Shown piece by piece: positions 10,537 to 40,985 of a stretch of 64,000 nucleotides of DNA. The notes under the pieces were generated by a model that saw only the letters and a program-made list of their open reading frames with translations, searched no databases and was not told where the DNA came from. A program made the position numbers and the translations under genes. The DNA lies in contig JBPCSZ010000038.1 of assembly GCA_051006655.1 (NCBI GenBank), forward strand, positions 3,990-67,989, in the 5' to 3' direction. Position 1 is the stretch's first letter. Each line of letters starts with the position of its first letter. Source of the stretch: Chitinophagaceae bacterium. Its GTDB lineage: Bacteria > Bacteroidota > Bacteroidia > Chitinophagales > Chitinophagaceae.

Positions 10537-10537
10537 A

Positions 10538-25000: not shown

Positions 25001-25912
25001 GTGTACGATAAACGCGTGAATGAAAAAGAAGCCGATGAGGTGATTCGTTTATTGCGCGATGAAATTCCTAATACGGTATCTGTTGGGGTGGCCACGTTTA
25101 ACCTCACGCAACGGAATTTAATTCTCGATAAAATCAGCGAAGCCCGTACCGCCGATCCGGATTTTCATGCCAAAATGGGCGCCCTCGATCAACTGGGTTT
25201 CTTCGTGAAAAATTTAGAAAATATTCAAGGCGATGAACGCGATGTACTGATTCTCAGCACCACCTTCGGGGTTAGGCCCGACGGCAAATTCATCATGAAC
25301 TTTGGTCCGTTAACGCAACGGCATGGACACCGCTTGTTGAATGTAATCATCACTCGAGCCCGTTCTACCGTGCATGTGTTAACGTCAATTCCTGTAAACC
25401 GACAAACAGAATATCGACAAGGTATTGAAGCGGAAGGGCGGGTGAGTGGTAAATCGGGACTCTTAGCCTATTTGCAATATGCGCGTTTTGTGAGTGAAGG
25501 CAATAACGAAGCCAAAAACGAATTGTTGCAATTCATTCAAATGCAAGTCTCCAAATCGAATTTAGAACGAAGTGCTATGGCCGGTTTAACGGAATCGCCC
25601 TTCGAAGAAGAAGTGTATGATTATTTAGTGCAAGCAATAGGTAAAGACCGCATTGTGCCTCAATACCGTTGCGGTGGATTCCGTATCGATTTGGTGGTTA
25701 CACTGCCCGGACAAGAACGTAAAATTGCCATTGAATGCGATGGGGCGGCTTATCACAGCGATGAACTTACCTGGCATCACGATATTTACCGTCAACAACA
25801 ATTGGAAGCACAAGGTTTTGTCTTTCACCGCATATGGTCTACCCGCTGGTGGGAAAACCAAGTGGCTGAGGAAATGCGCTTAATTGAATTCATTCGTTCT
25901 TACGAAGCGTAA
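22034..25912 (+). CDS. DUF4011-like / Upf1-like SF1 helicase fused to a C-terminal Vsr/DUF559-like (PD-(D/E)xK) endonuclease domain
   Basis: 1292 aa. N-terminal FGFGFPLIVRR..IVAPLFIWPLQI is DUF4011-like. The helicase motifs are Walker A GPPGTGKS (about aa 315), motif II VIFDEASQ (about aa 855), GDSQQMPP, HYRSRH, IQGDERDVLILS and RLLNVIITRAR. The C-terminus FRIDLVV..KIAIECDGAAYHS..HRIWSTRWW is DUF559/REase-like. Confidence 0.85.
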   Translation: MTLNRTFLSILKKKLSYGSTRSVLLNCIPGRLISRLALNDFDIAQTGSAQTFLDTLLNEKSFTFTLPIAFNTITETMSEAEQEALVKANGEKTKLEKRLASLQYDHDDFEKEYGVQTFGFGFPLIVRRNPNDLTKMIVAPLFIWPLQIKKSYTRNREWQIIRDPEQPIRVNEALRAYLKTEQHLELPVPADDVLDDGLLNADELNAFMQRLQSLWPEMQWPIAGWQITPLPASMDVQKESATSPRIIAEGVFALYKNLKQSLIQDVEILLSEEANQLETDPLDAWFHKSSPVNVDPSQHAVLRSLAKENRVVIQGPPGTGKSQTLTAIIATALTNQKKILVVCEKRTALEVIYNNLIKRFPFLQPAIAFVEDVSSDRQTIVKQFRERESGSLLTMSDTITETAKQESDEFETLIESLEQHYGTLRLKIKDNKRWADWVAEWLAARVPTAQMPAYALLAKSVSAPSAGAGMAQAVSWLKKAQQAYQAAAQEGFTMKRYFQPNYANNAVDIIRQLRNAQFELNNLLKVWEGRVGQVEATAKAKSNEARATWEHDLQQWQMALQSTSGQLSDPYSISFVESMRLLFGGSAIKEAVRQANHYRQSFFDLCTRLNTPPLDHIDAVRNHLNELQAAFVQTEVQRATQAQSDLNAEQARIERALSSIEPNLQAMLIIPSWQGSLLSKMQAMQGLLHELLLNENGITLYWQWRELELAPDASVKSILPLLQEHTFPDWADAYRLAQVYTLLDAYQQKNTLLRDETALDTVRSVMQQLAGVQEQAMEKYIHDAFQTGLRHIAARGFEPKKLYNLKGSAGTTRNSLRKIVQFSPESFLQIHPLVLANPSTCSSLFPMESGFFDLVIFDEASQLRIEDTYMALLRGKAVVVSGDSQQMPPSSYFESNNLLLDDSDLSDDVDSLSDQERMLEESNLEMAGKESLLEWAIEEGYCETSLDMHYRSRHPDLIEFSNACFYRSRLVPMPETEFDIPIRFYQVDGVYDKRVNEKEADEVIRLLRDEIPNTVSVGVATFNLTQRNLILDKISEARTADPDFHAKMGALDQLGFFVKNLENIQGDERDVLILSTTFGVRPDGKFIMNFGPLTQRHGHRLLNVIITRARSTVHVLTSIPVNRQTEYRQGIEAEGRVSGKSGLLAYLQYARFVSEGNNEAKNELLQFIQMQVSKSNLERSAMAGLTESPFEEEVYDYLVQAIGKDRIVPQYRCGGFRIDLVVTLPGQERKIAIECDGAAYHSDELTWHHDIYRQQQLEAQGFVFHRIWSTRWWENQVAEEMRLIEFIRSYEA

Positions 25913-25973
25913 TAGATGTTACATACATTCGAATAATTTTATAGCATCTTTGCCGTTTAACGCATTCTTCATT

Positions 25974-26783
25974 ATGGAAATTATTGCATTTATATTGGCC
26001 GCTTTGGTAGGGGTTTCGCTTGGACTCATTGGGAGCGGGGGCTCTATTCTTACCGTGCCGATTTTGGTGTATATCTTAGGTGTGAATCCGGTATTGGCCA
26101 CCGCGTATTCCTTGTTTATTGTGGGCTCAACCGCCTTGGTGGGTGGCATTCAGAATGCCATGAATAAATTAGTAGATTTTAAAACCTTATTCATTTTTGG
26201 TATTCCTTCCATTATTGCGGTGTACGCTACGCGTTCATTCATTATGCCTATCATTCCCGAAACGGTTTTAACCATAGGCGGATTTACCTTGAACAAACCT
26301 ATGGCCTTAATGCTATTGTTTGCTGTCATCATGATATTGGCTTCCTTGTCGATGATTCGAACCCCTAAAACACAAAATACCGCTGTCGATGAAAATGCCC
26401 CTTTACAGTATAATTATCCCATGATTTTGTTGGAAGGTACTGTGGTGGGCGTATTAACCGGATTGGTAGGTGCCGGTGGTGGATTCTTAATTATTCCGGC
26501 CTTGGTATTATTGGCCAAAATGCCCATGAAAAAAGCCGTAGGTACTTCCTTGTTTATCATCGCGGCTAAATCCCTTATCGGCTTCATTGGCGATTTACAA
26601 GGGAATGAAGTGATCGATTGGATGTTGCTGGGTGGATTCACCTTTTTTGCCGTATTAGGCATTTTTATTGGTATTTATTTATCGAAGCGCGTGCCTTCTG
26701 CCGGACTTAAAAAAGGCTTCGGTTGGTTTGTATTGGTGATGGGGATTTATATCATCATTAAAGAAACTTTATTGAAGAAATAA
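25974..26783 (+). CDS. TauE/SafE (TSUP) family sulfite/organosulfonate exporter
   Basis: About 270 aa with 7-8 TM helices and the duplicated G-rich motifs GLIGSGGSILTVPILVY and GLVGAGGGFLIIPALV. The start is taken at ATG 25974 (MEIIAFILAAL) rather than the track start 25884, which overlaps the helicase gene. Confidence 0.8.
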   Translation: MEIIAFILAALVGVSLGLIGSGGSILTVPILVYILGVNPVLATAYSLFIVGSTALVGGIQNAMNKLVDFKTLFIFGIPSIIAVYATRSFIMPIIPETVLTIGGFTLNKPMALMLLFAVIMILASLSMIRTPKTQNTAVDENAPLQYNYPMILLEGTVVGVLTGLVGAGGGFLIIPALVLLAKMPMKKAVGTSLFIIAAKSLIGFIGDLQGNEVIDWMLLGGFTFFAVLGIFIGIYLSKRVPSAGLKKGFGWFVLVMGIYIIIKETLLKK

Positions 26784-26820
26784 TAGGGTATTGACAATCT
26801 CTATTGTGGGTGTATTTTTA

Positions 26821-26836
26821 TGTGACAAATGTCACG
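26821..26836. promoter_or_regulatory. CRP/FNR-type palindrome TGTGA-N6-TCACG
   Basis: TGTGACAAATGTCACG matches the TGTGAnnnnnnTCACA consensus at 9 of 10 positions (core GTGACA-NN-TGTCAC). Its centre lies about 30 nt upstream of the TAAATTTG -7 box. Confidence 0.4.
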
Positions 26837-26857
26837 AAAACCCTCCACTTGGTCATT

Positions 26858-26865
26858 TAAATTTG
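26858..26865 (+). promoter_or_regulatory. Bacteroidota-type -7 box (TAaaTTTG) of the persulfide dioxygenase gene
   Basis: TAAATTTG lies 18 nt upstream of ATG 26883. Confidence 0.45.
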
Positions 26866-26882
26866 CTTAAAATTTTTCAATT

Positions 26883-28298
26883 ATGCACATAGAACAAATT
26901 TACACCGGTTGTTTAGCCCAAGGCGCTTACTACATTACTAGCAACGGGGAAGCTGCCATCATCGATCCCCTTCGTGAAATAAAACCTTATCTCGATCGCA
27001 TTCAACGCGATGGGGTGGTTTTAAAATATATTTTTGAAACCCATTTTCATGCCGATTTCGTTTCCGGGCATGTCGACTTAAGTAAACAAACCGGAGCGCC
27101 TATTGTTTACGGTCCAACAGCCAAACCTGAATTCGAGGCCTTGGTAGCGACCGATGAACAAATATTTTCAATTGGAAATATTAAAATTAAAGTGTTGCAT
27201 ACACCGGGGCATACCATGGAAAGCACCACGTATTTACTCATCGATGAAGAAGGAAAAAATCATGCCATCTTCACCGGCGATACCTTGTTTTTAGGTGATG
27301 TTGGTCGCCCCGATTTAGCTCAAAAAGCCGCTAGCCTCACGCAAGAAGAATTGGCCGGTTTATTGTACGATAGTTTGATGACTAAAATTATGCCTTTAGC
27401 CGATGACGTAATTGTTTACCCTGCCCATGGCGCCGGTAGTGCTTGTGGGAAGAATATGATGAAGGAAACTGTTGATACCTTAGGGCATCAAAAAGAAATG
27501 AACTATGCCTTGAATCAACCAAACAGAGAAGCTTTCATTCAAGCCGTAACGGATGGCTTAACGCCACCTCCCGGTTATTTTGGTATGAATGTGGCTATGA
27601 ATAAAAAAGGATATGCTTCTTTCAACGAAGTATTGAATCACGGCATGCGTGCATTGTCGCCGGCCGAATTTGAAGCCGCGGCTGAAGAAACAGAAGCTTT
27701 GATTTTGGACACTCGTTCGGCCGATGACTTTTCAAAAGGATTTATTCCACAATCGATTAATATTGGTTTAGGAGGCGATTTTGCACCTTGGGTAGGGGCT
27801 TTGATTGTAGATGTGAAACAACCTTTGTTGTTGATTACCGAACCCGGTCGTGAAGAAGAGGCCATTACCCGTTTGAGTCGCGTTGGCTTCGATCATATTT
27901 TAGGTCATTTACAAGGTGGCTTTGCTTCATGGCAAGCTGAAAATAAAGAAGTGGATACCGTGAACCGAATCACTCCGGAAACTTTTGCCGAACAAGTGGA
28001 CGTGAATAAGGACATGATTATAGATGTGCGCAAAGAAGGCGAATATTCCGCTGAACACGTTGAAAATGCTTACAGCAAACCCTTGGCTTATATCAACGAA
28101 TGGATTAAAGATATTCAACCCGATACCCATTTCTTTTTACATTGTGCCGGAGGCTATCGCAGTATGATGGCAGCGTCTATTTTACAAGCCCGCGGATATC
28201 GTAATTTCAGTGAAGTGGCCGGCGGTTTTAATGCTATTGCTAAAACAACCGTACCTAAAACCGATTATGTTTGTCCCTCGAAAATGATTAAACTCTAA
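26883..28298 (+). CDS. MBL-fold persulfide dioxygenase fused to two rhodanese domains (CstB-like)
   Basis: 471 aa. The metal motif is ETHFHADFVSGH with a GDTLFLGDVGRPD block. The first rhodanese-like domain has no active-site Cys. The second carries the catalytic loop HCAGGYRS. Confidence 0.85.
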   Translation: MHIEQIYTGCLAQGAYYITSNGEAAIIDPLREIKPYLDRIQRDGVVLKYIFETHFHADFVSGHVDLSKQTGAPIVYGPTAKPEFEALVATDEQIFSIGNIKIKVLHTPGHTMESTTYLLIDEEGKNHAIFTGDTLFLGDVGRPDLAQKAASLTQEELAGLLYDSLMTKIMPLADDVIVYPAHGAGSACGKNMMKETVDTLGHQKEMNYALNQPNREAFIQAVTDGLTPPPGYFGMNVAMNKKGYASFNEVLNHGMRALSPAEFEAAAEETEALILDTRSADDFSKGFIPQSINIGLGGDFAPWVGALIVDVKQPLLLITEPGREEEAITRLSRVGFDHILGHLQGGFASWQAENKEVDTVNRITPETFAEQVDVNKDMIIDVRKEGEYSAEHVENAYSKPLAYINEWIKDIQPDTHFFLHCAGGYRSMMAASILQARGYRNFSEVAGGFNAIAKTTVPKTDYVCPSKMIKL

Positions 28299-28311
28299 TT
28301 GAATTTTATGG

Positions 28312-28344
28312 AGCCCGGAATGTATTTGGCATTCCGGGCTTTTT
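28312..28344 (+). terminator. Rho-independent terminator or attenuator after the dioxygenase gene
   Basis: AGCCCGGAAT-N9-ATTCCGGGCT, a 10-bp perfect stem followed by TTTT. Confidence 0.6.
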
Positions 28345-28372
28345 ATGTCACCTCAAAAATTAATATCACAAT

Positions 28373-28942
28373 ATGCAATTGCTTAATCTTTTAACTGACC
28401 CATGGCCCTGGTATGTAGCAGGCCCACTTATTGGCTTGATGGTACCATTATTATTACTTATTGGAAATAAATCGTTTGGTATCTCTTCTTCTTTGCGTCA
28501 TGTTTGTGCCGCCTGTATACCCACTAAAATCAAATTCTTTCAATACGATTGGAAAAAAGAAAAATGGAATTTGTTTTTTGTTGCCGGCATTTTGGTTGGA
28601 GGAGCAGTAGCTATGCAACTTTTATCTTCTTCAAACCCAGTTACGGTACATCCTAAATTAGCCGAGGAATTAGCCCAATATGGTATTACCAATTATGACG
28701 GATTAGTGCCGGTTGAATTATTCAATTGGACGACCTTGTTTTCCTTGAAAGGATTTTTAATGATGGTCGTAGGTGGTTTCTTAGTAGGCTTCGGAACACG
28801 ATATGCCGGAGGCTGTACTAGTGGACATGCCATCATGGGCTTATCAACCTTACAATGGCCTTCCTTAGTAGCCACCATTTGCTTTATGGTAGGTGGTATT
28901 GCCATGGCCCAATTTGTTTTACCATTTATTTTATCCTTATAA
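28373..28942 (+). CDS. YeeE/YedE family sulfur-compound transporter, half-size subunit 1
   Basis: 189 aa with 4-5 TM helices and the conserved GGCTSGH motif (RYAGGCTSGHAIMG). Confidence 0.8.
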   Translation: MQLLNLLTDPWPWYVAGPLIGLMVPLLLLIGNKSFGISSSLRHVCAACIPTKIKFFQYDWKKEKWNLFFVAGILVGGAVAMQLLSSSNPVTVHPKLAEELAQYGITNYDGLVPVELFNWTTLFSLKGFLMMVVGGFLVGFGTRYAGGCTSGHAIMGLSTLQWPSLVATICFMVGGIAMAQFVLPFILSL

Positions 28943-28952
28943 TCTTTTGAAC

Positions 28953-29447
28953 ATGGAAAAAATACCTCAAACAGAATTTGAACGTCGCGCGCAAGATGCG
29001 ATGTGTGTAAACGAAAGTCAATTAGAACACCGTTGGTACCATCAATTAAAATATGCCTTAGCGGGTATTTTATTCGGCATCATTTTTATAAAAGCTGAAA
29101 TTATTTCATGGTTTCGTATTCAAGAAATGTTCCGTTTCCAATCCTTTCACATGTATGGTGTAATTGGAAGTGCCGTTGTAGTAGGTGTCATCTCGGTATG
29201 GTTAATCAAGAAGTTCAACATTAAAACCATCTATGGAGAAACTGTTACGTTTCATCCGAAAGAATTCAATAAAGGGAATATTTACGGTGGCTTATTGTTT
29301 GGTTTTGGTTGGGCCATGACGGGTGCTTGTCCGGGACCCTTATACGCTCAAATTGGTAGCGGTGCCTTGGTGATTATCGTAACCTTATTAAGTGCCATTG
29401 CCGGAACCTTTGTGTACGGGTTCTTGCGCGATCGTTTACCGCATTAA
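28953..29447 (+). CDS. YeeE/YedE family sulfur-compound transporter, half-size subunit 2
   Basis: About 164 aa from ATG 28953 (MEKIPQTEF), with TM helices and the motif GFGWAMTGACPGP. Confidence 0.8.
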   Translation: MEKIPQTEFERRAQDAMCVNESQLEHRWYHQLKYALAGILFGIIFIKAEIISWFRIQEMFRFQSFHMYGVIGSAVVVGVISVWLIKKFNIKTIYGETVTFHPKEFNKGNIYGGLLFGFGWAMTGACPGPLYAQIGSGALVIIVTLLSAIAGTFVYGFLRDRLPH

Positions 29448-29457
29448 TTAAAACAAG

Positions 29458-30528
29458 GTGAAAAAGGATTTCTCGAACGAATCACTATTGCGTGTTATAC
29501 ACTATCTCACTGTGTTGGTATTTGTACTTATTGCAACTATTGTTTTAATTCCGATTTTGATTTGGAAGGGCGATGCAATTGTTTCCTTCTTCACCCCTAA
29601 ACCTAAATTACAAATTGTAGTGGCTTCCACCGACGTGTTGCCCGATACCTTTTGGCATGCCCGCGATATCGCACTCGAAACGGATACCCAACAAAAGGCT
29701 TTGATTTCTTACGGGAAAGAATTGATTGCCCATACAGCGTATTATTTAGGACCAAAAGGCTCCGTGATGCCAATAAGTAATGGCATGAATTGTCAAAACT
29801 GTCATTTAGATGCCGGCACACGAGTATATGGTAATAACTACGGTTCTGTATTTAGTCAATACCCCAAATTTCGGGCACGCAGTGGTTCCGAAGAAACTAT
29901 GTTCAAACGCATCAACGATTGTTTGGAACGAAGCTTAAATGGAAAATCGCTCGATTCGAACGGACGAGAATTAAAAGCCATGAAAGCCTATATTGCCTTT
30001 ATTGGTTCGAATGTTCCAAAAGGAAAAAAAGGGGCGGGGAGTGGATTAAAAGAAATGGATTATTTAACACGCCCCGCGAATCCAATAGCCGGTAAAGCCG
30101 TGTATGCCACACATTGTGCTTCTTGCCATGGGGCTAATGGGGAAGGACAAAAAACACCCGATGGCATGGAGTATAGTTACCCGCCCATGTGGGGTCCCCA
30201 TAGTTTCAACGATGCTGCCGGTTTATACCGCATCAGCAATTTCGCGCGTTATGTAAAATACAATATGCCTTTGGGGGTTACTCACCAGAATCCTACATTA
30301 AGTGATGAAGAAGCATGGGATGTAGCGGCTTTTGTTATTGCACAAGCTCGTCCGCATAAAGACGTACCGGCCGATTGGCCCGATATCAGCAAGAAACCCA
30401 TCGACCATCCACGTGGACCTTATGTAGATTCCTTTTCAGAACAGCAACATAAGTTCGGTCCATTCAAACCCATTCAAACTTTTTATAAAACGTATGCTTC
30501 GGCAACAAAGTCAACTAAAAAATCGTAA
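29458..30528 (+). CDS. Membrane-anchored dihaem c-type cytochrome, TsdA-like (thiosulfate dehydrogenase family)
   Basis: 356 aa with an N-terminal TM anchor. Haem 1 is CQNCH, with a conserved Cys 39 residues later in RINDCLERSLNG (His/Cys ligation pattern of TsdA/SoxA). Haem 2 is CASCH, followed by YPPMWG. Confidence 0.6.
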   Translation: MKKDFSNESLLRVIHYLTVLVFVLIATIVLIPILIWKGDAIVSFFTPKPKLQIVVASTDVLPDTFWHARDIALETDTQQKALISYGKELIAHTAYYLGPKGSVMPISNGMNCQNCHLDAGTRVYGNNYGSVFSQYPKFRARSGSEETMFKRINDCLERSLNGKSLDSNGRELKAMKAYIAFIGSNVPKGKKGAGSGLKEMDYLTRPANPIAGKAVYATHCASCHGANGEGQKTPDGMEYSYPPMWGPHSFNDAAGLYRISNFARYVKYNMPLGVTHQNPTLSDEEAWDVAAFVIAQARPHKDVPADWPDISKKPIDHPRGPYVDSFSEQQHKFGPFKPIQTFYKTYASATKSTKKS

Positions 30529-30531
30529 ATT

Positions 30532-30948
30532 ATGAAACCTGTATTCTTTATTGCTTTTCTTTTATTTTTATTGCCGGCTAGCATGATGGGTCAAGGACAA
30601 CGTCATCGTATTGTTTTTCAATTCACGAATGCCCAAGATACTTTGCAACAAAAAGCCTTCATTAAACAATTGCAAAATTTAAAAGCCCATTGGCCCGATG
30701 CCACGTTTGAAGTGGTTTTATACAATCAAGGCTTGGAATTATTATTGCCCAATAAGGGCATTCAAATTTCGGCAGTAAAAGCTCTTCACGATGAGGGCAT
30801 TGATTTTTTAATTTGCGAAAACACCTTGAAGAATCGTCAAATGTCCAAAGAACAATTTCCGGCATGGGTCAACTATATTCCGGCAGGAATAGCCCATATG
30901 GTTGAACGTCAGGAAGAAGGATGGTCCTATATCAAAGGAGGCTTTTAA
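30532..30948 (+). CDS. DsrE/DsrF-like family protein (COG1416 type) with a signal peptide
   Basis: 138 aa. It has the cleavable-looking N-terminus MKPVFFIAFLLFLLPASMMG, then IVFQFTN, a FEVVLYNQGLELL block, IDFLICENTL and GWSYIKGGF. Confidence 0.65.
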   Translation: MKPVFFIAFLLFLLPASMMGQGQRHRIVFQFTNAQDTLQQKAFIKQLQNLKAHWPDATFEVVLYNQGLELLLPNKGIQISAVKALHDEGIDFLICENTLKNRQMSKEQFPAWVNYIPAGIAHMVERQEEGWSYIKGGF

Positions 30949-30949
30949 T

Positions 30950-32647
30950 ATGAAACAGCAGCATAACTCACGACGCGATTTTTTACGCAAAGCCGGTTTG
31001 ACTTTAGGGGCCGGTGTACTTGCGCCATTAAGCCATATGGCGGCTTCTTTCAATAAAGAAACAAAACCCAACGAAGAAGAAAGCCCCATTAAAAAAACGC
31101 GGGTAACTTTATTTCAAACTACCGATGTTCATTGTCAATTGCATCCGCACGATGAATTGTATTGGGAAAATGGACAAGCCGTATTTCGCGAAGCAGGTGG
31201 GTATGCCACCATTTCGGCCATGTTTCAATCACTTCGAAAGAAAAATCCAAACGCCCTGTTCATCGACACCGGCGATATGTTTCAAGGAAGTCAACTCAGT
31301 GTGAAAACTACCGGAGATGCCTTTGTTCCTATTTTAAATGCTTGCGAATACGATTTGTTTTTGCCGGGCAATTGGGAAGTGATTTATGGTAAGAAACGGA
31401 TGCAAGAACTCATGGGGCAATTGGAGGCGCCCACGATTTGCACCAATATGTTTCACGATTTAGGGAACAAGCAAAAAGGCGATTTTATTTTTAAACCTTA
31501 TGCCGTACAAGCTTTCGAAGATGTTCGCATTGGCTTTTTAGGTTATACCGATCCCTTGGTGCCAATTCGCCAAAGTCCGAATTACAGCAAAGGCATTTTA
31601 TACACCGCCCCCGAAGAAAACTTAGCCGAATACGTACATTATTTACGGGAGACCGAAAAATGCGATGCGATTATTGTATTAGCTCATTTAGGACTCTCGC
31701 AACAAATTGCCTTATCGAATCATCCGGCTTGCGAAGGGGTGAATTATATTTTAGGTGGCGATACCCACGAACGGGTACGTGTGCCATTGCAAGGTAAATA
31801 TGCCAAGGTGGTAGAACCCGGTGCGTTTGGTTCATTTATTGGACAATTGGATTTGTATTTTGAAAACAAACATTTGGTGCATGATGCCTATCAATTACTC
31901 GATGTTTCTCCCGATGAGCATGTGGCTAATCCTAAAATGAATCGATTGATTGAAAAAGCAGAAACCGCTTGGGAAAATGATATTTATTCGGTTATTGGTT
32001 ACAGCACCATTCCCTTATATCGATATTTCGTAATTGAAAACCCCATTGATACCTTGGTGCTGAATGCCTTGCATGATCATTTCCCCGATACCGATATCGT
32101 CCTTTCAAATGGCTTCCGTTTTTGTCCACCACGAACTACCCCCAATGAAAACGGTTTAATTCCCATCACCAATGGCTATGTGGTGGATATGTTACCGGTA
32201 GATAGTACCGTGCGAAAAGGCAAGGTGAGCGGTAAACAATTATTGGAATGGTTAGAAAAGGAATTGAATAATGTATTTGCGGCCGATGCATCGAAACGTT
32301 TTGGCGGATGGGTGGTGAAGTTCAAAGGCATGAAGCTTAAGTTTTATGCGTTTAAGCCGATGGGACAACGCATTGAATCGGTAGAAGTACGTGGTGTACC
32401 TCTAGATGAAACTAAAACCTATTCCATTTTAGCTTGCGAACGCGATGGTGACCCGGCCGATATGTTGTGCCGAATCAAAGGGGTTAAAGAAGCTGAGAAT
32501 ACGCCTTATTCATTGCACGGTGTTTTAGGGAGTTATATTCAAAAACATTCGCCGGTAACGCCAACGCCCGAAAAAAATGCCATTGCTTTAGATGCTCCTG
32601 AAACACTACTTTCGCAAGTGCATGGTGTTCCTTACACGTTTCAATAA
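30950..32647 (+). CDS. Tat-exported dimetal phosphoesterase of the 5'-nucleotidase/SoxB family (SoxB-like)
   Basis: It starts at ATG 30950 with the twin-arginine signal SRRDFLRKAGLTLGAG. Metallophosphatase motifs are TTDVHCQ and DTGDMFQGS. It has GNWEVIYG (SoxB-type WE..YG) in place of the GNHEF of true nucleotidases. A C-terminal 5'-nucleotidase-C-like domain is present. Confidence 0.65.
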   Translation: MKQQHNSRRDFLRKAGLTLGAGVLAPLSHMAASFNKETKPNEEESPIKKTRVTLFQTTDVHCQLHPHDELYWENGQAVFREAGGYATISAMFQSLRKKNPNALFIDTGDMFQGSQLSVKTTGDAFVPILNACEYDLFLPGNWEVIYGKKRMQELMGQLEAPTICTNMFHDLGNKQKGDFIFKPYAVQAFEDVRIGFLGYTDPLVPIRQSPNYSKGILYTAPEENLAEYVHYLRETEKCDAIIVLAHLGLSQQIALSNHPACEGVNYILGGDTHERVRVPLQGKYAKVVEPGAFGSFIGQLDLYFENKHLVHDAYQLLDVSPDEHVANPKMNRLIEKAETAWENDIYSVIGYSTIPLYRYFVIENPIDTLVLNALHDHFPDTDIVLSNGFRFCPPRTTPNENGLIPITNGYVVDMLPVDSTVRKGKVSGKQLLEWLEKELNNVFAADASKRFGGWVVKFKGMKLKFYAFKPMGQRIESVEVRGVPLDETKTYSILACERDGDPADMLCRIKGVKEAENTPYSLHGVLGSYIQKHSPVTPTPEKNAIALDAPETLLSQVHGVPYTFQ

Positions 32648-34081
32648 ATGAAGAAGAATTTGCTCGAAAGAAGAATCCTATTTTTATTCCTAATTAACCT
32701 GTTGCCTTCATTGGCCAAAGCGCAACATCAAGCCCTCGACGAAAAACCGGCCATTTGGAAATCCGATACGGCAAAGGCGCCCGATGATGGGATTCAAGCC
32801 TTGTTTAAAAAAGCCAATTTCAGTGGGCATTTCCGTTATATGTTCATGGCTACCGACAATGCCAAAGGGTTGAGCGATTATTATGCGAATGCCCTTGGGG
32901 GAGGTTTACGCATGGAAACACAAGCTTGGCATGGCTTTCGATTGGCCGTGAGTGGATTTTATAGTTTTAATATTGGGTCGAGTAATTTAGTAAAAGCAGA
33001 TTCGCTCAGCGGACAAAAAAATCGCTACGAAGTTGGACTGTTCGATATCACCGATCCTTCCAACAAAAAGAATATTGATCGCTTAGAGGAACTTTATTTG
33101 CGCTACGACAGAAAAACGTGGAAGTTAGTATTGGGAAAACAACTGATTAATACCCCATTTATCAACTTACAAGATGGTCGGATGCGTCCAACCGGTGTGA
33201 ACGGATTGTATGCCGAAAAACAGATTACGTCTAAGTCGCGTTTGGAAGGTTTTTTGCTTTATGGTATTTCACCGCGAAGCACAACGAAATGGTATAGTAT
33301 AGGGGAGTCGGTAGGTTTATATGCACAAGGCGTAAACCTTAACGGTTCCAAATCGAATTATGCGCAACATATTTCGGCGAAATATATTGGTATGTTGGCA
33401 TGGCATCAATCGTTCAAACATCGTTGGCAAACACAATGGTGGCATTTGTATGCCGACCGTTTAATGTATACCAGTCTCTTTCAGGTCGATAAAAAATGGG
33501 AATGGCTCAATGGACAATGGCAGGGGAGTGCCCAGGTAATTCATCAACAATCGCTTTCACAATTCGATCCGCTACCACAGGCAGGGCAATATTACATGGA
33601 ACCTCATGCAAAAGCTACAAGCTTTGGTTTTCAAGCCATTTATAAAAAGAAACAACACCAATTCTATTTACAGTATAATCGAATAACAGCCCAAGGTCGT
33701 TATTTAATGCCACGGGAATGGGGGCGAGATCCTTTCTTCACGTTCATGCCTCGAGAACGTAATGAAGGCTTAGGCAATATGCAAGCATGGGTAATTCGTT
33801 ATCATTGGCTGAAACCATCAAAAGCCTGGCAATGGCAATTGGCCGGCGGTATTTATCAATTACCCTCACCGGATAATTATCGCTTAAATAAATATGGTAT
33901 GCCTTCCTACGCACAAGCCATGCTCGATTGGCGCTATCGATTTAGCGGACGATTAAATGGCTTAGAATGTCAGGCTTTATTCACTGCCAAATGGGCCTTG
34001 AAAACACCCGAAAAGTCGAGTAATATCATCAACAAAGTCAATATGTTGCATACCACAATATCGGCCAATTACCGGTTTTGA
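32648..34081 (+). CDS. Putative outer-membrane beta-barrel porin
   Basis: 477 aa with a signal peptide, alternating aromatic/polar beta-strand pattern, and the C-terminal ...ISANYRF typical of OMPs. Its ATG directly follows the stop codon of the SoxB-like gene. Confidence 0.55.
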   Translation: MKKNLLERRILFLFLINLLPSLAKAQHQALDEKPAIWKSDTAKAPDDGIQALFKKANFSGHFRYMFMATDNAKGLSDYYANALGGGLRMETQAWHGFRLAVSGFYSFNIGSSNLVKADSLSGQKNRYEVGLFDITDPSNKKNIDRLEELYLRYDRKTWKLVLGKQLINTPFINLQDGRMRPTGVNGLYAEKQITSKSRLEGFLLYGISPRSTTKWYSIGESVGLYAQGVNLNGSKSNYAQHISAKYIGMLAWHQSFKHRWQTQWWHLYADRLMYTSLFQVDKKWEWLNGQWQGSAQVIHQQSLSQFDPLPQAGQYYMEPHAKATSFGFQAIYKKKQHQFYLQYNRITAQGRYLMPREWGRDPFFTFMPRERNEGLGNMQAWVIRYHWLKPSKAWQWQLAGGIYQLPSPDNYRLNKYGMPSYAQAMLDWRYRFSGRLNGLECQALFTAKWALKTPEKSSNIINKVNMLHTTISANYRF

Positions 34082-34160
34082 TATAGATTTTGCTTATGAC
34101 CTAATTAAAATTACATGCATTTTTGATACAAAACCTGAATTCTGCGTTTAACTTTGCGCA

Positions 34161-34736
34161 GTGGAATTGCAGATTTTGACCTTCTTTAAGTTGTTAGACC
34201 CCACGAACGCGCTTAACCAAGCTGAACGAGACTTGGTTTTGAGCACGGCTCGATTAGTATCTATCAAAAAAAATGCCTTGTTACAGCATATTGGACAAAC
34301 CTGCAGAACCATTTATTTTATACAAAAAGGGTGTACGCGTGTTTATTACATGCACAACGAAATTGAAGTAACAGAATGTTTTAATTTCGAAGGGGATCTC
34401 ACCGTTCGGTTTGAAAGTTTATTGGCCGGAGTGCCTAGTAAACGAGCTATACAAGCCATCGAACCTACTCAATTAATTGCCCTCGATTTAGCCAAGTTGG
34501 AGCCTATTTTTACTGTTTTTCCTCGTATTGAAGTTGTTTTCCGTCGACTGTTTCATACCTACCATATTCAAACGCTTCAACGCATGGAAAATATGCAGTT
34601 TAATTCGGCCGAAGAACGGTATCAAATTTTAATGGAAACCCAATCAGAAGTTATTAAACGAATACCACTCAAATTCATTGCGTCTTATTTAGGTATAACT
34701 GCCGTTAGTTTGAGTCGAATTCGGGGCAAAAAATAA
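34161..34736 (+). CDS. Crp/Fnr family transcriptional regulator
   Basis: About 190 aa with a cNMP-binding-like beta-roll (YFIQKGCTRVYY) and the C-terminal HTH IASYLGITAVSLSRIR. The start is uncertain: GTG 34161 is only 5 nt after a TAACTTTG box, so TTG codons at 34167-34191 are alternatives. Confidence 0.75.
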   Translation: MELQILTFFKLLDPTNALNQAERDLVLSTARLVSIKKNALLQHIGQTCRTIYFIQKGCTRVYYMHNEIEVTECFNFEGDLTVRFESLLAGVPSKRAIQAIEPTQLIALDLAKLEPIFTVFPRIEVVFRRLFHTYHIQTLQRMENMQFNSAEERYQILMETQSEVIKRIPLKFIASYLGITAVSLSRIRGKK

Positions 34737-34788
34737 CGACAAATTAAACAACCCGGTAATTATTTCGGTTTAAAAAAGCACAAAAAAA

Positions 34789-34805
34789 ATGCCTGTTAAA
34801 GGCAT
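34789..34805. terminator. Bidirectional hairpin between the crp-like gene and tRNA-Ser
   Basis: ATGCCT-guuaa-AGGCAT flanked by A8 and T-rich runs. Confidence 0.5.
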
Positions 34806-34819
34806 TTAATTTTTGGAGG

Positions 34820-34906
34820 CGGTGAGAGAGGGATTCGAACCCCCGGTAAAGTTGCCCCTACTTCGCATTTCGAGTGCGACCCATTCGACCTCTCTGGCAT
34901 CTCACC
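34820..34906 (-). tRNA. tRNA-Ser (anticodon CGA)
   Basis: The reverse complement is GGTGAGATGCCAGAGAGGTCGAATGGGTCGCACTCGAAATGCGAAGTAGGGGCAACTTTACCGGGGGTTCGAATCCCTCTCTCACCG. It has a 7-bp acceptor stem, anticodon loop CT-CGA-AA, a long variable arm and a GTTCGAATC T-loop. CCA is not encoded. Confidence 0.9.
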
Positions 34907-35069
34907 GCGGCGAAGGTAATAAAATTGTTTATTGTAACCAAGTGATGTTGTTCGGGTTCTTTTTAATCAACAATTTTAATTAATGCAATAGCTTCAAAGC
35001 ATATGAAGCAAACAACTATTTATCATTTGTAAATTACCTCCATGGTAAACAAGGGGAACTTTGCTTATT

Positions 35070-36590
35070 ATGAATGAGCGCAACGTTGTAAAACAAGGCC
35101 TTAAACAAAATTGGCTTCAGTTTGTCATTTTAGTGGGTGTTAATGCCTTGGTAGGGGCCATGTTGGGAATGGAAAGAAGCATCTTACCCCGATTCGCTGA
35201 ATCCGAATTTCATATCGCATCTCACTCGGCACTACTAACTTTCATTGTTGCTTTTGGTATTTCAAAAGCATTGGCCAATTTTTTGTCGGGGCATTATTCG
35301 AATGCACTTGGACGTAAAAATTGGTTATTGTTGGGTTGGCTATTAGCCATTCCTATTCCGTGGATATTTATTTATGCGAATCATTGGAATTGGATTGTTT
35401 TAGCTAATATACTCATGGGCTTAAGTCAAGGTTTTGCGTGGAGCAGTACCGTGGTTATGAAAATTGATTTGGTGGGTGAAAAGAATCGGGGCTTAGCCAT
35501 GGGACTCAATGAGTTTGCCGGTTATTTAAGTTTAGGAATTAGTGCATACCTCACGGCGAACTTGGCGGAACATTATGCTTATCGACCTTATCCATTTTAC
35601 TTAGGCGTGTTTTTTTCTATCATTGGTTTCTTAGTCACCTTGCTCAGCGTTAACGATACCCGAAGTATGCTACAAGCAGAACAAGGTAAAAGCATGATGC
35701 CTAAAATGAAACGTGTTTTTATTGAAACCAGTTTCACCAATAAAACGTTGAGTGCTGTTACGCAGGCTGGCATGGTGAATAATTTGAACGATGGCATGTT
35801 ATGGGGATTACTGCCCATTTTATTGCATCAGCTATTTTTTAATCAAGAAGAAATTGGCATTGTATCGGCTATATATCCGGCAGTTTGGGGACTTGGACAA
35901 TTGTTTACCGGACCTTTATCCGATAAATGGTCCATAAAACGATTATTGGTTTTTGGCATGTTGGCGCAGGGGGTGATATTATTGCTATTGCCTCTTTGGC
36001 GTGGGAACATGGCGTTTATGTTGTCGGCCGGTTTATTAGGAATTGCTACGGCTATGGTTTATCCTACCTTTATGGTGGCCATTGCCAAGGGGTGTCATCC
36101 GGAACAACGGGCTGCCGGTATAGGCGTTTTTCGTTTGTGGCGCGATTTGGGTTATGCCTTCGGGGCCATTATATCCGGTATTATTGCCGATGCGTTCGGT
36201 ATCGAAATGGCTATATGGTTTGTAGGAGGTATTACGGTTTTATCGGGTATTATGGTTTATTGGCGCATGCCCAAACAAATACCGGTACCTGTACAATGCA
36301 TAAAACCCGAAATCGTTCGTTCCCTGTTGCAGCAAAAAAATAATATTCAAATTATTGATGTTCGGAATTACGAGGAATATACCCATTCGCATATTCCATT
36401 GGCAAGGCATATACCGCTCAATGAAATATCGTCGGAAATAAAACGAATTGATAAAGAAAACTTTATTGTGGTTACTTGCGGAAAGGGTGGTGGTCGCTCT
36501 GCCTTTGCCACCAAATGGTTATTGCAAGAAGGCTATAATGCCCAATGGCTTTGTGGCGGCGTTGAACAATGGCATCAATCGATGGCTTAA
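35070..36590 (+). CDS. MFS transporter with a C-terminal rhodanese domain
   Basis: About 12 TM helices followed by about 100 aa of rhodanese (IQIIDVRNYEEYTHSHIP, catalytic loop TCGKGGGRS). ATG 35070 is preferred over TTG 35061. Confidence 0.8.
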   Translation: MNERNVVKQGLKQNWLQFVILVGVNALVGAMLGMERSILPRFAESEFHIASHSALLTFIVAFGISKALANFLSGHYSNALGRKNWLLLGWLLAIPIPWIFIYANHWNWIVLANILMGLSQGFAWSSTVVMKIDLVGEKNRGLAMGLNEFAGYLSLGISAYLTANLAEHYAYRPYPFYLGVFFSIIGFLVTLLSVNDTRSMLQAEQGKSMMPKMKRVFIETSFTNKTLSAVTQAGMVNNLNDGMLWGLLPILLHQLFFNQEEIGIVSAIYPAVWGLGQLFTGPLSDKWSIKRLLVFGMLAQGVILLLLPLWRGNMAFMLSAGLLGIATAMVYPTFMVAIAKGCHPEQRAAGIGVFRLWRDLGYAFGAIISGIIADAFGIEMAIWFVGGITVLSGIMVYWRMPKQIPVPVQCIKPEIVRSLLQQKNNIQIIDVRNYEEYTHSHIPLARHIPLNEISSEIKRIDKENFIVVTCGKGGGRSAFATKWLLQEGYNAQWLCGGVEQWHQSMA

Positions 36591-37513
36591 TTAAATGCTT
36601 CGTACCATTTGAATTTCGTTTCAATAATATGTTCTTTTTCTTTTCGTAAGTAAGTTAAAAAGGCTTGACTCAAGGGCGATAAGGGTTTGTTCTTAAGCCA
36701 AATTAAATACCACGTGGAACGAATGGGGAATTCTTTCACCGGAATGATGTGCAATTGTTTGGCTATTAATTCATTTTTCAAACCAATAAGGGGCATAATA
36801 CTATAACCTAAGCCCGACATCACCGCTTGTTTCACTTGCTCATTGCTCGTAAGGGTCATCTTCATAGTAACGGGTAATTTATTCTTTCGAATAAATTGTT
36901 CCATAATTTGTCGGGTACCCGATCCCGGCTCTCGATAAATTAGCGGAATAGAATTGAAAAAATCGTAGGAGGTTTGTTGTTTATTGACAGGAAGCATTTG
37001 GCTTCCTACCAAGTATAGTTTCTGTTCTAATAATTCCATTTTTTGAATGGGAATATCCTTGGGTAGAATGGTTACAAAGGCAAAATCGATGGCGTTTTCG
37101 GCCAAGTCGGAAAACACTTGAGCCTTGTTCGAAACATCCATTTTCAATTCAATTCCCGGATGCCCTTGCATAAAATCGCTAATGAAATAGGGGGCTATAT
37201 ATTTAGCGGTTGACACTAACCCGATTTTCAATTTCCCGCTTAATAGTCCTTTATACGATTGGGTGGTTTGGTCAATCCGATGCACTTCCTCCAACATATT
37301 TTCAGCCGAACGTGCAATTGATTTTCCAAAATCGGTAATACGAATTTTTTTATTGATTATCTCAATCAAGGGAATGTCGAATTGGGCTGAAAAGTTCTTC
37401 AGTTGAATTGAAACCGCCGGTTGTGTTAAATTCAGTTCTCGGGCGGCTTTCGTAATACTGCCCAGTCGAACAACTGTGGCATAAATTCGAAGTTGGTTCA
37501 AGGTGTAGTTCAT
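36587..37513 (-). CDS. LysR family transcriptional regulator
   Basis: 308 aa with the N-terminal wHTH LNQLRIYATVVRLGSITKAARELNLTQPAVSIQLK and a C-terminal substrate-binding domain. Confidence 0.9.
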   Translation of the reverse strand: MNYTLNQLRIYATVVRLGSITKAARELNLTQPAVSIQLKNFSAQFDIPLIEIINKKIRITDFGKSIARSAENMLEEVHRIDQTTQSYKGLLSGKLKIGLVSTAKYIAPYFISDFMQGHPGIELKMDVSNKAQVFSDLAENAIDFAFVTILPKDIPIQKMELLEQKLYLVGSQMLPVNKQQTSYDFFNSIPLIYREPGSGTRQIMEQFIRKNKLPVTMKMTLTSNEQVKQAVMSGLGYSIMPLIGLKNELIAKQLHIIPVKEFPIRSTWYLIWLKNKPLSPLSQAFLTYLRKEKEHIIETKFKWYEAFN

Positions 37514-37596
37514 AAATAAACGTTATGATAAACATATCAAATATAAATGAATTTATATAATAAAATGCCATCAATTTTGTCATCAAATTCAATACC

Positions 37597-37773
37597 ATGA
37601 AAAAGGTAATATTATTCATTATGTTTTTGTTGGCCTGTATTTCACTCATCGGAATTTGGCAATTTAAACAAGATCCGGTATTGTCGAACTTATTTAAGGC
37701 AGCGGCTTTAATTTTCATGTTGTTGATTCCGGCGCAATGGGCACAAGCGGGGAAGCCTAAAACATGGCCTTGA
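37597..37773 (+). CDS. Possible small membrane protein (58 aa), divergent from the LysR gene
   Basis: It is below the track's size cut-off. ATG 37597 gives MKKVILFIMFLLACISLIGIWQFKQDPVLSNLFKAAALIFMLLIPAQWAQAGKPKTWP, with two hydrophobic segments. The only supports are the open frame and its position 83 nt from lysR. Confidence 0.25.
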   Translation: MKKVILFIMFLLACISLIGIWQFKQDPVLSNLFKAAALIFMLLIPAQWAQAGKPKTWP

Positions 37774-38017
37774 AGCGCAACAGCATAACTATATGAAACA
37801 CCCGTCCCGTCTTCCGCGGTGCATGGCACCTTGCTGCAGCCGGGGCTATTTTTCATCGTCCAATTCTTTGTTCCTCTTTTCCTATCGATTGGTGTCCTGA
37901 GACAACCCGTTTGTGAAATGAAATTTTCCTATCGGTCGATGTTCCCACAGACCGAAATACCATTTACGTTGGACATTTATAGGTAAATAAATCATACTTA
38001 TAAAAATAATGAACAAT

Positions 38018-38215
38018 TCAAGTTAAATAATTTCTTCTATCGGCTTTGGAGGTTTTGGCAAGTCCCTCTGCGATATTGAGTACAATACTAAATGAAGCTC
38101 GACCCATTTTGTCAATTACATACTTCTCTGGTTTGTGTTCTTTTAATATCGTTTTACATGCTAAGTGAAACAATCTGGATTTCTTGTATACGTCGAGGTT
38201 TTGGAAGTTGAACAT
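38018..38215 (-). pseudogene. Truncated four-helix-bundle (23S rRNA IVS / Avd-like family) gene
   Basis: MFNFQNLDVYKKSRLFHLACKTILKEHKPEKYVIDKMGRASFSIVLNIAEGLAKTSKADRRNYLT* is the first 64 of the 115 residues encoded by the intact copy at 40581-40928. The deletion junction shows microhomology AAAT(A/T)ATTTCTT. Confidence 0.75.
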
Positions 38216-38229
38216 GGGGAGAGGTTTTA

Positions 38230-38283
38230 AGAGTAGGAGTAGGAGTAGGAGTAGGAGTAAGAGAAGGAGTAGGAGTAGGAGAA
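38230..38283. repeat. Hexanucleotide microsatellite (GGAGTA)n, 9 units
   Basis: The units are AGAGTA, (GGAGTA)x4, AGAGAA, (GGAGTA)x2, GGAGAA, lying 15 nt upstream (in the gene's sense) of the truncated four-helix-bundle ATG. The paralogous locus has 6 units. Confidence 0.9.
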
Positions 38284-38571
38284 ACAAGAAGAGTAGGAAT
38301 AAGCGGTGATTTTCTTACGCTTACTCCTACTCTTTATCTTACTGTTCAGCGGAGAGAGAGGTCTATGAACCTAAACTCCTAAGTATGTGATTTTCAATGA
38401 TTTACGTCTATCTTTAGCCAAAGGAGTCACCATTAGGAAACCAAGTCAAAAAAGTTGGGGGACTTGACTCTCTGCTTAGCCAGCCTTTGGATAATTCAAA
38501 TATAATGAACCCTTCGGAGAATCCCTAAAGATTTATCCACCAAATAAGCGTTCCTTTCAAGCTGAATCCAA

Positions 38572-40134: not shown

Positions 40135-40227
40135 GTTTTGATATATATGGGCGCAAGATAGGGAAATTTTAGGCGCAAAAAAATATAAATGGGCGCAAAA
40201 CGTAATTGGAAATTAAAATCGAGCGCA
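40097..40227. repeat. Iteron-like array: six copies of (A/T)ATGGGCGCAA straddling the Fic start codon
   Basis: ATGGGCGCA is at 40097, ATGGGCGCT at 40117, ATGGGCGCA at 40147, TAGGCGCA at 40170, ATGGGCGCA at 40189 and CGAGCGCA at about 40220. Spacings are about 20, 30, 22, 20 and 30 nt, and all copies share one orientation. Confidence 0.75.
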
Positions 40228-40274
40228 ATCTTTTATGTGTCAACGTACAAAGTCCACGAATTGAATTTTTCCTA

Positions 40275-40401
40275 TCGGTCGGTGTCCCGAAGCTGACCGA
40301 GAACAAATTTAATCTCATTGAGAATTGCGTAAATGCAATTTTGTTTCCAATACCTATCCGAGAAGGCAATCATTCTCGGTCAGCCTCTCCCCACCGACCG
40401 A
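40275..40401 (-). other. Nested inverted-repeat element (possible structured RNA or MITE-like insert) between the four-helix-bundle and Fic genes
   Basis: The outer stem is TCGGTCGGTG (40275-84) with CACCGACCGA (40392-401). The inner stem is GCTGACCGAGAA (40292-303) with TTCTCGGTCAGC (40373-84). A competing partner CCGAGAA lies at about 40358-64. An internal AATTGC-N6-GCAATT is also present. The left repeat copy keeps only TCGGTC-N12-GACCGA (37932-55). Confidence 0.6.
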
Positions 40402-40580
40402 AATACCATTTACGTTGGACATTTATAGGTAAATAAATCATACTAATAAAAATAATGAACAATTCAGGTTAAATTATTTCTTTTTTTGACAAATAGTAAA
40501 TATAGTTTTGATGTTTGAATTTTGCATTGTTGAAATGAAAGGGATGTTAACTCTACAGAGGAGCTACTCTCAAAGGGGTA

Positions 40581-40928
40581 TTACTTACTTAAATTCTGTA
40601 TCATGATGTACAACATTCTCGATATTTCATCGGCTAACCCAAGATTTGTTTGATATTGTTCATCACTTAAACGATGTTCATCGTTTAATAGGTCCAATAC
40701 AGCTACGCATTCAAAAACAGAACCACGAGCAACGGTAAAATAATTTCTTCTATCGGCATTGGAGGTTTTGGCAAGTCCCTCTGCGATATTGAGTACAATA
40801 CTAAATGAAGCTCGACCCATTTGGTCAATTACATACTTCTCCGCTTTGTGTTCTTTTAATATCGTTTTACATGCTAAGTGAAACAATCTGGATTTCTTGT
40901 ATACGTCGAGGTTTTGGAAGTTGAACAT
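40581..40928 (-). CDS. Four-helix-bundle protein (23S rRNA intervening-sequence protein / DGR Avd-like family)
   Basis: 115 aa from ATG 40928: MFNFQNLDVYKKSRLFHLACKTILK...NIAEGLAKTSNADRRNYFTVARGSVFECVAVLDLL. These are family-typical motifs. The track's poly-Leu N-terminal extension is just the translated microsatellite. Confidence 0.85.
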   Translation of the reverse strand: MFNFQNLDVYKKSRLFHLACKTILKEHKAEKYVIDQMGRASFSIVLNIAEGLAKTSNADRRNYFTVARGSVFECVAVLDLLNDEHRLSDEQYQTNLGLADEISRMLYIMIQNLSK

Positions 40929-40942
40929 GGGGAGAGGTTTTA

Positions 40943-40978
40943 GGAGTAGGAGTAGGAGTAGGAGTAGGAGTAGGAGAA
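40943..40978. repeat. Hexanucleotide microsatellite (GGAGTA)n, 6 units
   Basis: (GGAGTA)x5 plus GGAGAA, 15 nt upstream of the four-helix-bundle ATG in the gene's sense. Confidence 0.9.
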
Positions 40979-40985
40979 ACAAGAA

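Follow-up and report, generated by a model that had tools for sequence, protein, structure and literature searches.

A 64,000-nucleotide stretch of a Chitinophagaceae genome (contig JBPCSZ010000038.1 of assembly GCA_051006655.1; the whole stretch is referred to below as the window) contains, at positions 25,974–37,513, a run of genes for sulfur-compound enzymes, transporters and regulators, which raises the question of whether these genes form a pathway of a known kind. An initial annotation of the window listed the genes and suggested that, as a set, they matched no characterised pathway. All of the listed genes were recovered at their positions by an open reading frame (ORF) map and profile searches, and the general picture, of periplasmic thiosulfate or polythionate chemistry served by transporters and a cytoplasmic persulfide dioxygenase (PDO), stands. 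The suggestion of an uncharacterised pathway has to be given up, as a matching one, the TsdA/SoxB/Sdo pathway, is known from Erythrobacter flavus 21-3 (Zhang et al., ISME J 2020, PMC7608252). The cluster is probably the Bacteroidota version of this SoxYZ-independent thiosulfate oxidation pathway.

According to the proposed scheme, thiosulfate or tetrathionate would enter through an outer-membrane channel of OprD fold, and a membrane-anchored TsdA would convert two thiosulfate molecules into tetrathionate, with electrons passing toward a terminal oxidase. A SoxB-like hydrolase exported by the twin-arginine translocation (Tat) route would then release a terminal sulfonate in the form of sulfate, and the sulfane (zero-valent) sulfur that remains would be brought inward by two half-size YedE proteins. 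A CstB-type PDO-rhodanese would oxidise the imported sulfur to sulfite or thiosulfate, which would leave the cell via TauE and perhaps also via a major facilitator superfamily (MFS) transporter fused to a rhodanese. Through a common palindrome, a Crp/Fnr-type regulator would probably activate both TauE and the operon that runs from the PDO to the porin.

The Erythrobacter flavus counterpart

The marine bacterium E. flavus 21-3 has a thiosulfate-induced gene cluster in which tetrathionate is no longer formed once tsdA is deleted and accumulates, with no sulfur globules, in a soxB deletion mutant (PMC7608252). Its stand-alone "SoxB" (D0Y83_01365) acts on tetrathionate, giving sulfate and zero-valent sulfur, its SdoA and SdoB proteins are PDO-rhodanese enzymes that oxidise zero-valent sulfur, and the Bacteroidetes were named among the carriers of the pathway (PMC7608252). 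A cluster of the E. flavus type was recovered by searching metagenome contigs with the published tsdA expression primer, and then collecting genomic copies of that exact TsdA together with the upstream region; a soxB-flanking primer had no match in the metagenome contigs. The published deletion primers map to the recovered loci with 0–2 mismatches, which identifies D0Y83_01365 as the 469-aa SoxB-like gene. The paralogue 01405, which is phenotype-free, falls among true nucleotidases. The recovered cluster encodes a PDO-rhodanese, a SulP protein, a split YedE1/YedE2 pair, a metallo-β-lactamase (MBL) protein, a peroxiredoxin and an ArsR regulator, then a DUF3422 protein, an outer-membrane channel, a DsrE-like protein and the SoxB-like protein, and finally cbb3-type oxidase components and a TsdA with a transmembrane anchor.

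The window cluster and D0Y83_01340–01450 have in common a membrane-anchored TsdA of about 340–356 aa with a Cys ligand and an Asn-Met pair at haem 2, a SoxB-like protein of the same small clade (39% identity) with an adjacent gene for an exported DsrE-like protein, an outer-membrane channel, a split YedE1/YedE2, a PDO-rhodanese fusion and the absence of SoxYZ from the cluster. They differ in regulator (Crp/Fnr-type in the window, ArsR-type in E. flavus), exporter (TauE vs. SulP) and porin (OprD fold vs. Alginate_exp family). The window TsdA, unlike that of E. flavus, is not beside cbb3 oxidase genes; the window also lacks the extra SoxB-like/nucleotidase paralogues and the DsbD of E. flavus, and has an MFS-rhodanese fusion as a further difference. 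The DsrE-like proteins of the two systems are of different subtypes (27% identity over 64 residues). Judged by its protein families and gene content, the window cluster is a near one-to-one Bacteroidota counterpart of the genetically characterised E. flavus system, and would thus belong to an already known kind of pathway.

Conservation and distribution of the cluster

In the species-genome collection, 186 relatives of the SoxB-like protein were confirmed, of which the best 80, all from Bacteroidota, were kept for a comparison of gene neighbourhoods; neighbours were counted within 9 kb of the SoxB-like gene, and many absences reflect contig ends. These loci include some from culturable Flavobacterium, namely F. 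xanthum DSM 3661, F. omnivorum and F. psychrolimnae. Co-occurrence profiling across the phylum had been proposed as a check on the initial annotation, and the gene set does recur: TsdA is found in 66 of the 80 loci, co-oriented in every case, the YedE halves in 60, a DsrE-like gene in 53, the porin in 51, the PDO in 45 (orthologues 60–87% identical) and TauE in 28. An orthologue of the MFS transporter lies inside the cluster at 27/80 loci, usually unfused and with a separate small rhodanese nearby. The same neighbours are present in a more distant Bacteroidota subclade (42–49% identity), and a Crp gene of the window type lies downstream of the SoxB-like gene in loci L001, L011 and L041. As the same neighbours recur over the 80 loci, the set is not a chance composite. 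In the window itself, the ORF map gives a spacing of 0–10 nt between genes from the first YedE half through to the porin.

The cluster had also been described as unusual for Bacteroidota. This is correct in the sense that, in an even sample of the phylum, a SoxB-like homologue was detected in 18 of 401 species genomes (about 4.5%) and 12 of 180 genera, but the cluster is a minority trait that nonetheless forms a conserved syntenic unit across several orders. A conserved and poorly annotated gene set of the Bacteroidota (in the NCBI annotation, the hydrolase is labelled a nucleotidase and the cytochrome no more than a "c-type cytochrome") is now tied to a genetically supported pathway, so that its carriers can be taken as likely heterotrophic oxidisers of thiosulfate. 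The Flavobacterium, Chitinophagaceae and Saprospiraceae of fresh water and soil that possess the set would probably produce sulfate and zero-valent sulfur without SoxYZ.

Some of the related loci have a distinct organisation. Two full cluster copies are present in some Flavobacterium, namely F. caseinilyticum (L003/L006, on one contig, about 30 kb apart), F. petrolei (L007/L021) and F. psychrolimnae (L010/L035), and in one Flavobacterium copy type the DsrE-like and SoxB-like genes are split by the gene of an outer-membrane protein of FadL/TodX type (426 aa; 9 loci). In one genus (L093, positions 10,922–11,905; L096, positions 7,935–8,951; also L094 and L095), the SoxB-like protein is 59–61% identical, and none of the sulfur genes usually found around it are present; at L093 and L096, the two loci read in detail, its gene adjoins that of a non-TsdA membrane-anchored dihaem cytochrome c of 327–338 aa. 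A related set is found in Myxococcus xanthus (L108; CP068048.1, positions 5,414,320–5,433,918), where TauE, rhodanese and PDO genes diverge from YedE1, YedE2 and further genes. No TsdA is present in this set; the YedE pair is followed by an extracytoplasmic function (ECF) sigma/anti-sigma pair, a rhodanese, the SoxB-like protein, a YeiH-like membrane protein, a DsrE-like protein and a porin-like protein.

The SoxB-like hydrolase

The gene at positions 30,950–32,647 (forward strand, as for all genes below unless stated otherwise; the true start is the ATG at 30,950) encodes a 565-aa dimetal hydrolase with a predicted Tat signal (Tat motif, 18.5 bits; cut-off 16.7). Its best family is the SoxB model TIGR04486 (E 3e-68), with a score of 230 bits that is far above that of any nucleotidase model, yet below the cut-off of 550; a canonical SoxB representative (P0058) scores 649 bits. 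The label SoxB-like thus held in a profile comparison of SoxB and 5'-nucleotidase models, and the tree points the same way, with the hydrolase grouping with SoxB, apart from the nucleotidases, at 99–100% support. In pairwise alignments, the nucleotidase motif GNHEF corresponds to GNWEV in the window protein and to SHWEW in Thermus SoxB, with Trp in place of the catalytic His, and all 17 rows of the nucleotidase clade keep His at the GNHE/D position. The dimetal ligands (D59, H61, D109, N141, H246 and H273) are intact, and W142 and the SoxB-type R390 are conserved.

An ordinary periplasmic nucleotidase that came to lie among sulfur genes by chance would fit the Pfam result, in which only the Metallophos and 5_nucleotid_C domains are detected, and the NCBI label of the relatives ("bifunctional metallophosphatase/5'-nucleotidase"). 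Against this, the His of GNHE is replaced by Trp, the protein groups with SoxB at the support given above, the synteny with sulfur genes is kept over several phyla and a protein from the same small clade shows a sulfur phenotype in E. flavus. We consider a nucleotidase function scarcely credible, and a plain nucleotidase was rejected on the basis of the His-to-Trp replacement, the tree placement and the synteny.

The hydrolase is not, for all that, a canonical SoxB. A tree of representatives resolves three well-supported groups: nucleotidases (GNH), canonical SoxB (HWE), which includes the Thermus thermophilus protein, and a large SoxB-like clade (GNW[ED]), in which the window protein sits. 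The window hydrolase and E. flavus-type SoxB (39% identity over 432 residues, E 1e-117) share a starred clade of four rows. Membership of canonical SoxB is ruled out by the profile score (230 vs. 550 bits), the position outside the canonical clade and a genome without SoxY (PF13501). On phylogenetic grounds, the clade that holds both the E. flavus "SoxB" and the window protein is best described as a sister family of canonical SoxB rather than a part of it, and this family is typically accompanied by an exported DsrE-like protein. With the canonical Sox system (SoxXA, SoxYZ, SoxB and SoxCD), the window cluster has in common a periplasmic location, a SoxA/TsdA-type enzyme with a Cys-ligated haem and a SoxB-lineage dimetal hydrolase in which Trp takes the place of the nucleotidase His and the Arg is conserved. 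It differs in that the genome has no SoxY (SoxZ was not searched for), the hydrolase belongs to the sister clade and lacks the N-terminal SoxB insertion, and the DsrE-like protein is the only candidate thiol carrier.

The SoxB-like protein contains a Cys496/Cys507 pair (ACERDGDPADMLCR), and this Cys-x10-Cys arrangement is present in 20–21 of the 34 rows of the GNW clade and absent from nucleotidases and from canonical SoxB, in which the segment is deleted. The two residues may form a disulfide or serve in sulfur handling. Cys62 and Cys392 are at least 95% conserved in the Bacteroidota relatives, and are rare or absent at these positions in the wider set.

The TsdA-type cytochrome

The dihaem cytochrome (positions 29,458–30,528; 356 aa), which has one N-terminal membrane helix, matches Allochromatium vinosum TsdA (4wqc) with an E-value of 3.6e-44 over residues 93–304 and exceeds the cut-off of PF21342 (43.8 bits; cut-off 27), so the TsdA-like call made from the sequence survived the profile check. 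Haem 1 has the motif CQNCH and a Cys ligand motif, RINDCLERSLNG, that aligns with RIGDCFERSLNG of A. vinosum TsdA, and haem 2 has CASCH with an NMPLG motif aligned to (K/N)MPLG; both sets of haem-ligand motifs are conserved in 67 family members. The protein is 35% identical to E. flavus-type TsdA. It is encoded by the sole SoxA/TsdA-type cytochrome gene of the genome, in which no second copy was found. By these matches, the product is a true TsdA homologue, with a predicted thiosulfate/tetrathionate catalysis. The best 120 matches listed in a search with this homologue were all from Bacteroidota. The protein extends C-terminally past the A. vinosum enzyme, at residues ~305–335, with a conserved motif DWPD..KP.DHP.GPY..F...QHKFGPF.

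TsdA might serve chiefly to reduce tetrathionate, like the Campylobacter jejuni enzyme, in which case the cluster would support tetrathionate respiration. The residue preceding the haem-2 Met is Asn (KYNMPLG), where A. vinosum TsdA has Lys, and C. jejuni TsdA has the same Asn-Met arrangement. However, the E. flavus-type TsdA also has Asn-Met (KANMPMG) and yet forms tetrathionate in vivo, an oxygen-dependent dioxygenase stands at the core of the cluster, and the genome encodes a cbb3-type oxidase, all of which make the reductive use of the enzyme improbable. An oxidative role is thus preferred here. In E. flavus-type genomes (L121/L122, positions 6,569–11,023), tsdA is the last gene of a cbb3-like run of ccoN, ccoO and cytochrome c genes, overlapping the previous gene by 4 nt, a position suggesting that, in those genomes, electrons pass from TsdA to the oxidase by a route of their own.

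Transporters, persulfide dioxygenase and direction of sulfur flow

The PDO gene (positions 26,883–28,298; 471 aa) encodes a protein of CstB-type architecture, with an MBL dioxygenase domain (Lactamase_B, residues 14–181, motif HFHADF) and, after it, two rhodanese domains, the first inactive and the second active; the Cys loop HCAGGYRS is found only in the last of the two rhodanese stretches, as initially annotated. It is followed by genes for a half-size YeeE/YedE protein of the PmpA/YedE type (C-terminal-half type; positions 28,373–28,942; motif GGCTSGH), matching positions 251–309 of the Sulf_transp profile, and, beginning 10 nt past the end of the first, for one of the PmpB/YedE type (N-terminal-half type; positions 28,953–29,447; motif GACPGP), matching positions 10–103 and DUF6691. 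The two proteins thus match opposite halves of Sulf_transp, have one conserved Cys each and are encoded by adjacent genes, in agreement with the YedE1E2/PmpAB family of half-size transporters (PMC11582611, PMC10812762). Over 61 sequences, conservation of the GGCTSGH motif reaches 95% or more, and GACPGP is conserved as well. The TauE/SafE-family anion exporter (positions 25,974–26,783; 269 aa; PF01925, E 7e-42) likely exports sulfite or thiosulfate.

The porin gene (positions 32,648–34,081; 477 aa) begins on the very next base after the SoxB-like stop codon. Sequence matches are weak (PF03573, 16.9 bits; cut-off 25), and the assignment was made by structure rather than by sequence profile: the AlphaFold model (pLDDT 84, pTM 0.81) is an 18-strand barrel, for which the top Foldseek matches are OccK/OprD porins (E 6.5e-26, TM 0.80–0.83), and the protein as modelled is an OprD/Occ-fold channel.

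The genome (2.76 Mb, 93.6% complete) provides the remaining context. The initial annotation had reported no Sox, sulfide:quinone oxidoreductase (SQR) or flavocytochrome c sulfide dehydrogenase (FCSD) genes in the window; for SoxY (PF13501), SQR, FCSD and SoxC, this absence extends to the whole genome, although SoxZ was not searched for. There is no canonical SoxB and no molybdenum sulfite oxidase in the genome, and its Pyr_redox_2 proteins are housekeeping enzymes only.

Two directions of sulfur flow can be considered. In the order first proposed, persulfides formed under sulfide stress would be converted to sulfite or thiosulfate by the CstB-like enzyme, exported by TauE, YedE or the MFS transporter and only then processed by TsdA and the SoxB-like hydrolase in the periplasm. 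The pairing of CstB with TauE follows the logic of the staphylococcal cst operon, type II SQR genes adjoin the cluster in 9 of the 80 related loci, and the operator described below lies upstream of SQR in three of eight cases. The genome studied here, however, has no SQR or FCSD that could make persulfide from sulfide, for which reason SQR-fed detoxification was rejected for this organism, and an external substrate is indicated by the outer-membrane channel and the exported enzymes. Furthermore, YedE1E2 speeds zero-valent sulfur's import to PDO rather than its export (PMC10812762). Outward detoxification is thus the unlikely order, and inward flow is favoured, because the dioxygenase, in a genome without SQR, has no obvious cytoplasmic source of persulfide and because YedE1E2 is known to import; periplasmically formed sulfane sulfur would be taken up, and sulfite or thiosulfate would then leave through TauE. 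Like the cst operon of Staphylococcus aureus (CstB, TauE and SQR) and the proteobacterial yedE1-yedE2-pdo operons, the window has a PDO with a pseudo-rhodanese and an active rhodanese, TauE nearby and a YedE pair beside the PDO, but it lacks SQR and a CstR/BigR-type repressor, and these genes are joined to a module for exported TsdA, SoxB-like and DsrE-like proteins and a porin.

Several points weigh against the assignment to an inward, E. flavus-like pathway. Identity to the characterised proteins is 35–39%, and in some related loci the partner of the SoxB-like gene is a cytochrome other than TsdA. The reaction attributed to the SoxB-like protein is drawn from E. flavus genetics and stoichiometry, and no assay of the purified enzyme was found in the E. 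flavus literature searched. The operator counts given below come from related, non-independent genomes. CstB-type enzymes, finally, are known from sulfide detoxification, so that outward flow retains a small share of the probability.

The DsrE-like protein as a possible sulfur carrier

The 138-aa protein encoded at positions 30,532–30,948, the stop codon of which is separated from the SoxB-like start codon by 1 nt, belongs to the DsrE/COG1416 group (PF02635, 29.2 bits, cut-off 22.7; E 2e-12 to MTH1491, a COG1416 structure, 1l1s). Its single Cys, Cys95, is invariant over 31 DsrE-like sequences, and all 31 aligned members have an N-terminal hydrophobic leader, as judged by reading the sequence. 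The protein is thus predicted to be exported, unlike the usual cytoplasmic sulfur-relay setting of the family.

Canonical SoxB hydrolyses a SoxY-Cys-S-thiosulfonate. A refinement of the pathway proposed above, which would not replace it, is that the exported DsrE-like protein substitutes for SoxYZ; this is conceivable, though we lean against it. We would be similarly cautious about its chemistry, in which the single Cys might attack the tetrathionate made by TsdA, forming a protein Cys-S-thiosulfonate for hydrolysis by the SoxB-like enzyme. It is likewise a tentative idea that the leftover protein persulfide would pass to YedE1E2 and that free tetrathionate would not be the true substrate of the hydrolase. 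The gene arrangement is consistent with such a role, the DsrE-like gene lying directly next to the SoxB-like gene in 39 of the 80 loci, with a spacing of 1–3 nt in the window, and the pairing recurs in E. flavus-type genomes, in a metagenome-assembled genome of Armatimonadota and in M. xanthus. There are also two natural fusions of a SoxB-like protein to a C-terminal DsrE domain, P0384 (646 aa) and P0388 (666 aa), to the first of which the window DsrE-like protein aligns at residues 542–645 (E 1.7e-13); the two carry different DsrE subtypes, and the fusions therefore probably arose independently. A gene for a SoxB-like/DsrE fusion is located immediately behind a YedE1/YedE2 pair in locus L109 (positions 6,358–8,298). 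The invariance of Cys95 argues for the carrier role too, as do the conservation in the window of Trp at the position where the two deposited SoxB sequences of T. thermophilus disagree, one having Trp and the other Cys, and the presence of periplasmic thioredoxin or DsbD genes with many such clusters. The closest chemical precedent is Metallosphaera cuprina DsrE3A, a DsrE-family protein with one reactive Cys, which forms a Cys-S-thiosulfonate with tetrathionate (PMC4175335). The M. cuprina DsrE3A/TusA system is cytoplasmic and feeds a heterodisulfide-reductase-like complex, whereas the window protein would be exported and is paired with a SoxB-like hydrolase, its chemistry being a prediction.

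An obligate carrier role is countered by the published deletion of D0Y83_01360, which is the DsrE-like gene according to the mapping of the published primers: this E. flavus mutant still formed sulfur globules at 40 mM thiosulfate. About one third of the related loci, moreover, have no DsrE-like gene within reach, many of these loci ending at contig edges. If the protein did turn out to be a carrier, which seems doubtful rather than probable, the SoxB-like/DsrE-like/YedE trio would constitute a widespread and unrecognised "mini-Sox" system, extending from Bacteroidota to Myxococcus, with the first two components sometimes fused.

Regulation

Two operator-like palindromes precede the genes of the cluster. 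The first (CGTAATAGATGTTACA, positions 25,908–25,923), centred ~59 nt 5' of the TauE start codon, matches the core TGTnA-N6-TnACA with one mismatch. The second (TGTGACAAATGTCACG, positions 26,821–26,836), centred ~54 nt 5' of the PDO start codon, matches TGTGA-N6-TCACA with no more than one mismatch, as nothing else in the window does. The number of Crp-type palindromes in the window is not above chance (1 found vs. 1.47 expected). In the related loci, a TGTnA-N6-TnACA palindrome lies about 55–69 nt upstream of start codons of cluster genes: it precedes the PDO in 31 of 43 loci (72%), TauE, at the same distance, in 17 of 26 (65%), the first YedE gene in 32 of 60 (53%) and the porin in 22 of 50 (44%), against a background of 13% for other genes of the same loci. 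The position and conservation of the palindrome suggest a shared regulon under Crp-type control. The candidate binder of both palindromes is the Crp/Fnr-family protein of the cluster (positions 34,161–34,736; 191 aa), the cNMP_binding domain of which scores 26.7 bits (cut-off 27.5).

Neighbouring genes and base composition

Beyond the regulator gene, the window contains a tRNA-Ser(CGA) on the reverse strand (positions 34,818–34,906), the MFS transporter with a C-terminal rhodanese (positions 35,061–36,590; MFS_1, E 5e-46; Rhodanese, E 5e-16), in which the Cys loop is intact, and, on the reverse strand, a LysR-family regulator (positions 36,587–37,513; HTH_1 and LysR_substrate), an orthologue of which was not seen in the related loci. 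The MFS transporter is unfused (402–409 aa) in those Flavobacterium loci that were read in detail, and has a separate 105-aa rhodanese near it. The tRNA lies between the Crp gene and the MFS-rhodanese in the window, and no tRNA is present between them in the nearest relative, L001. The G+C content is 0.39–0.42 over the cluster and a neighbouring Fic islet (window positions 26,000–42,000), vs. 0.44–0.47 in the flanks, and the SoxB-like protein shares 64% identity with that of Flavobacterium, compared with 45–47% for the copies from two genomes within its own family. The contrast in G+C content and these identities suggest that the cluster has spread laterally within the phylum.

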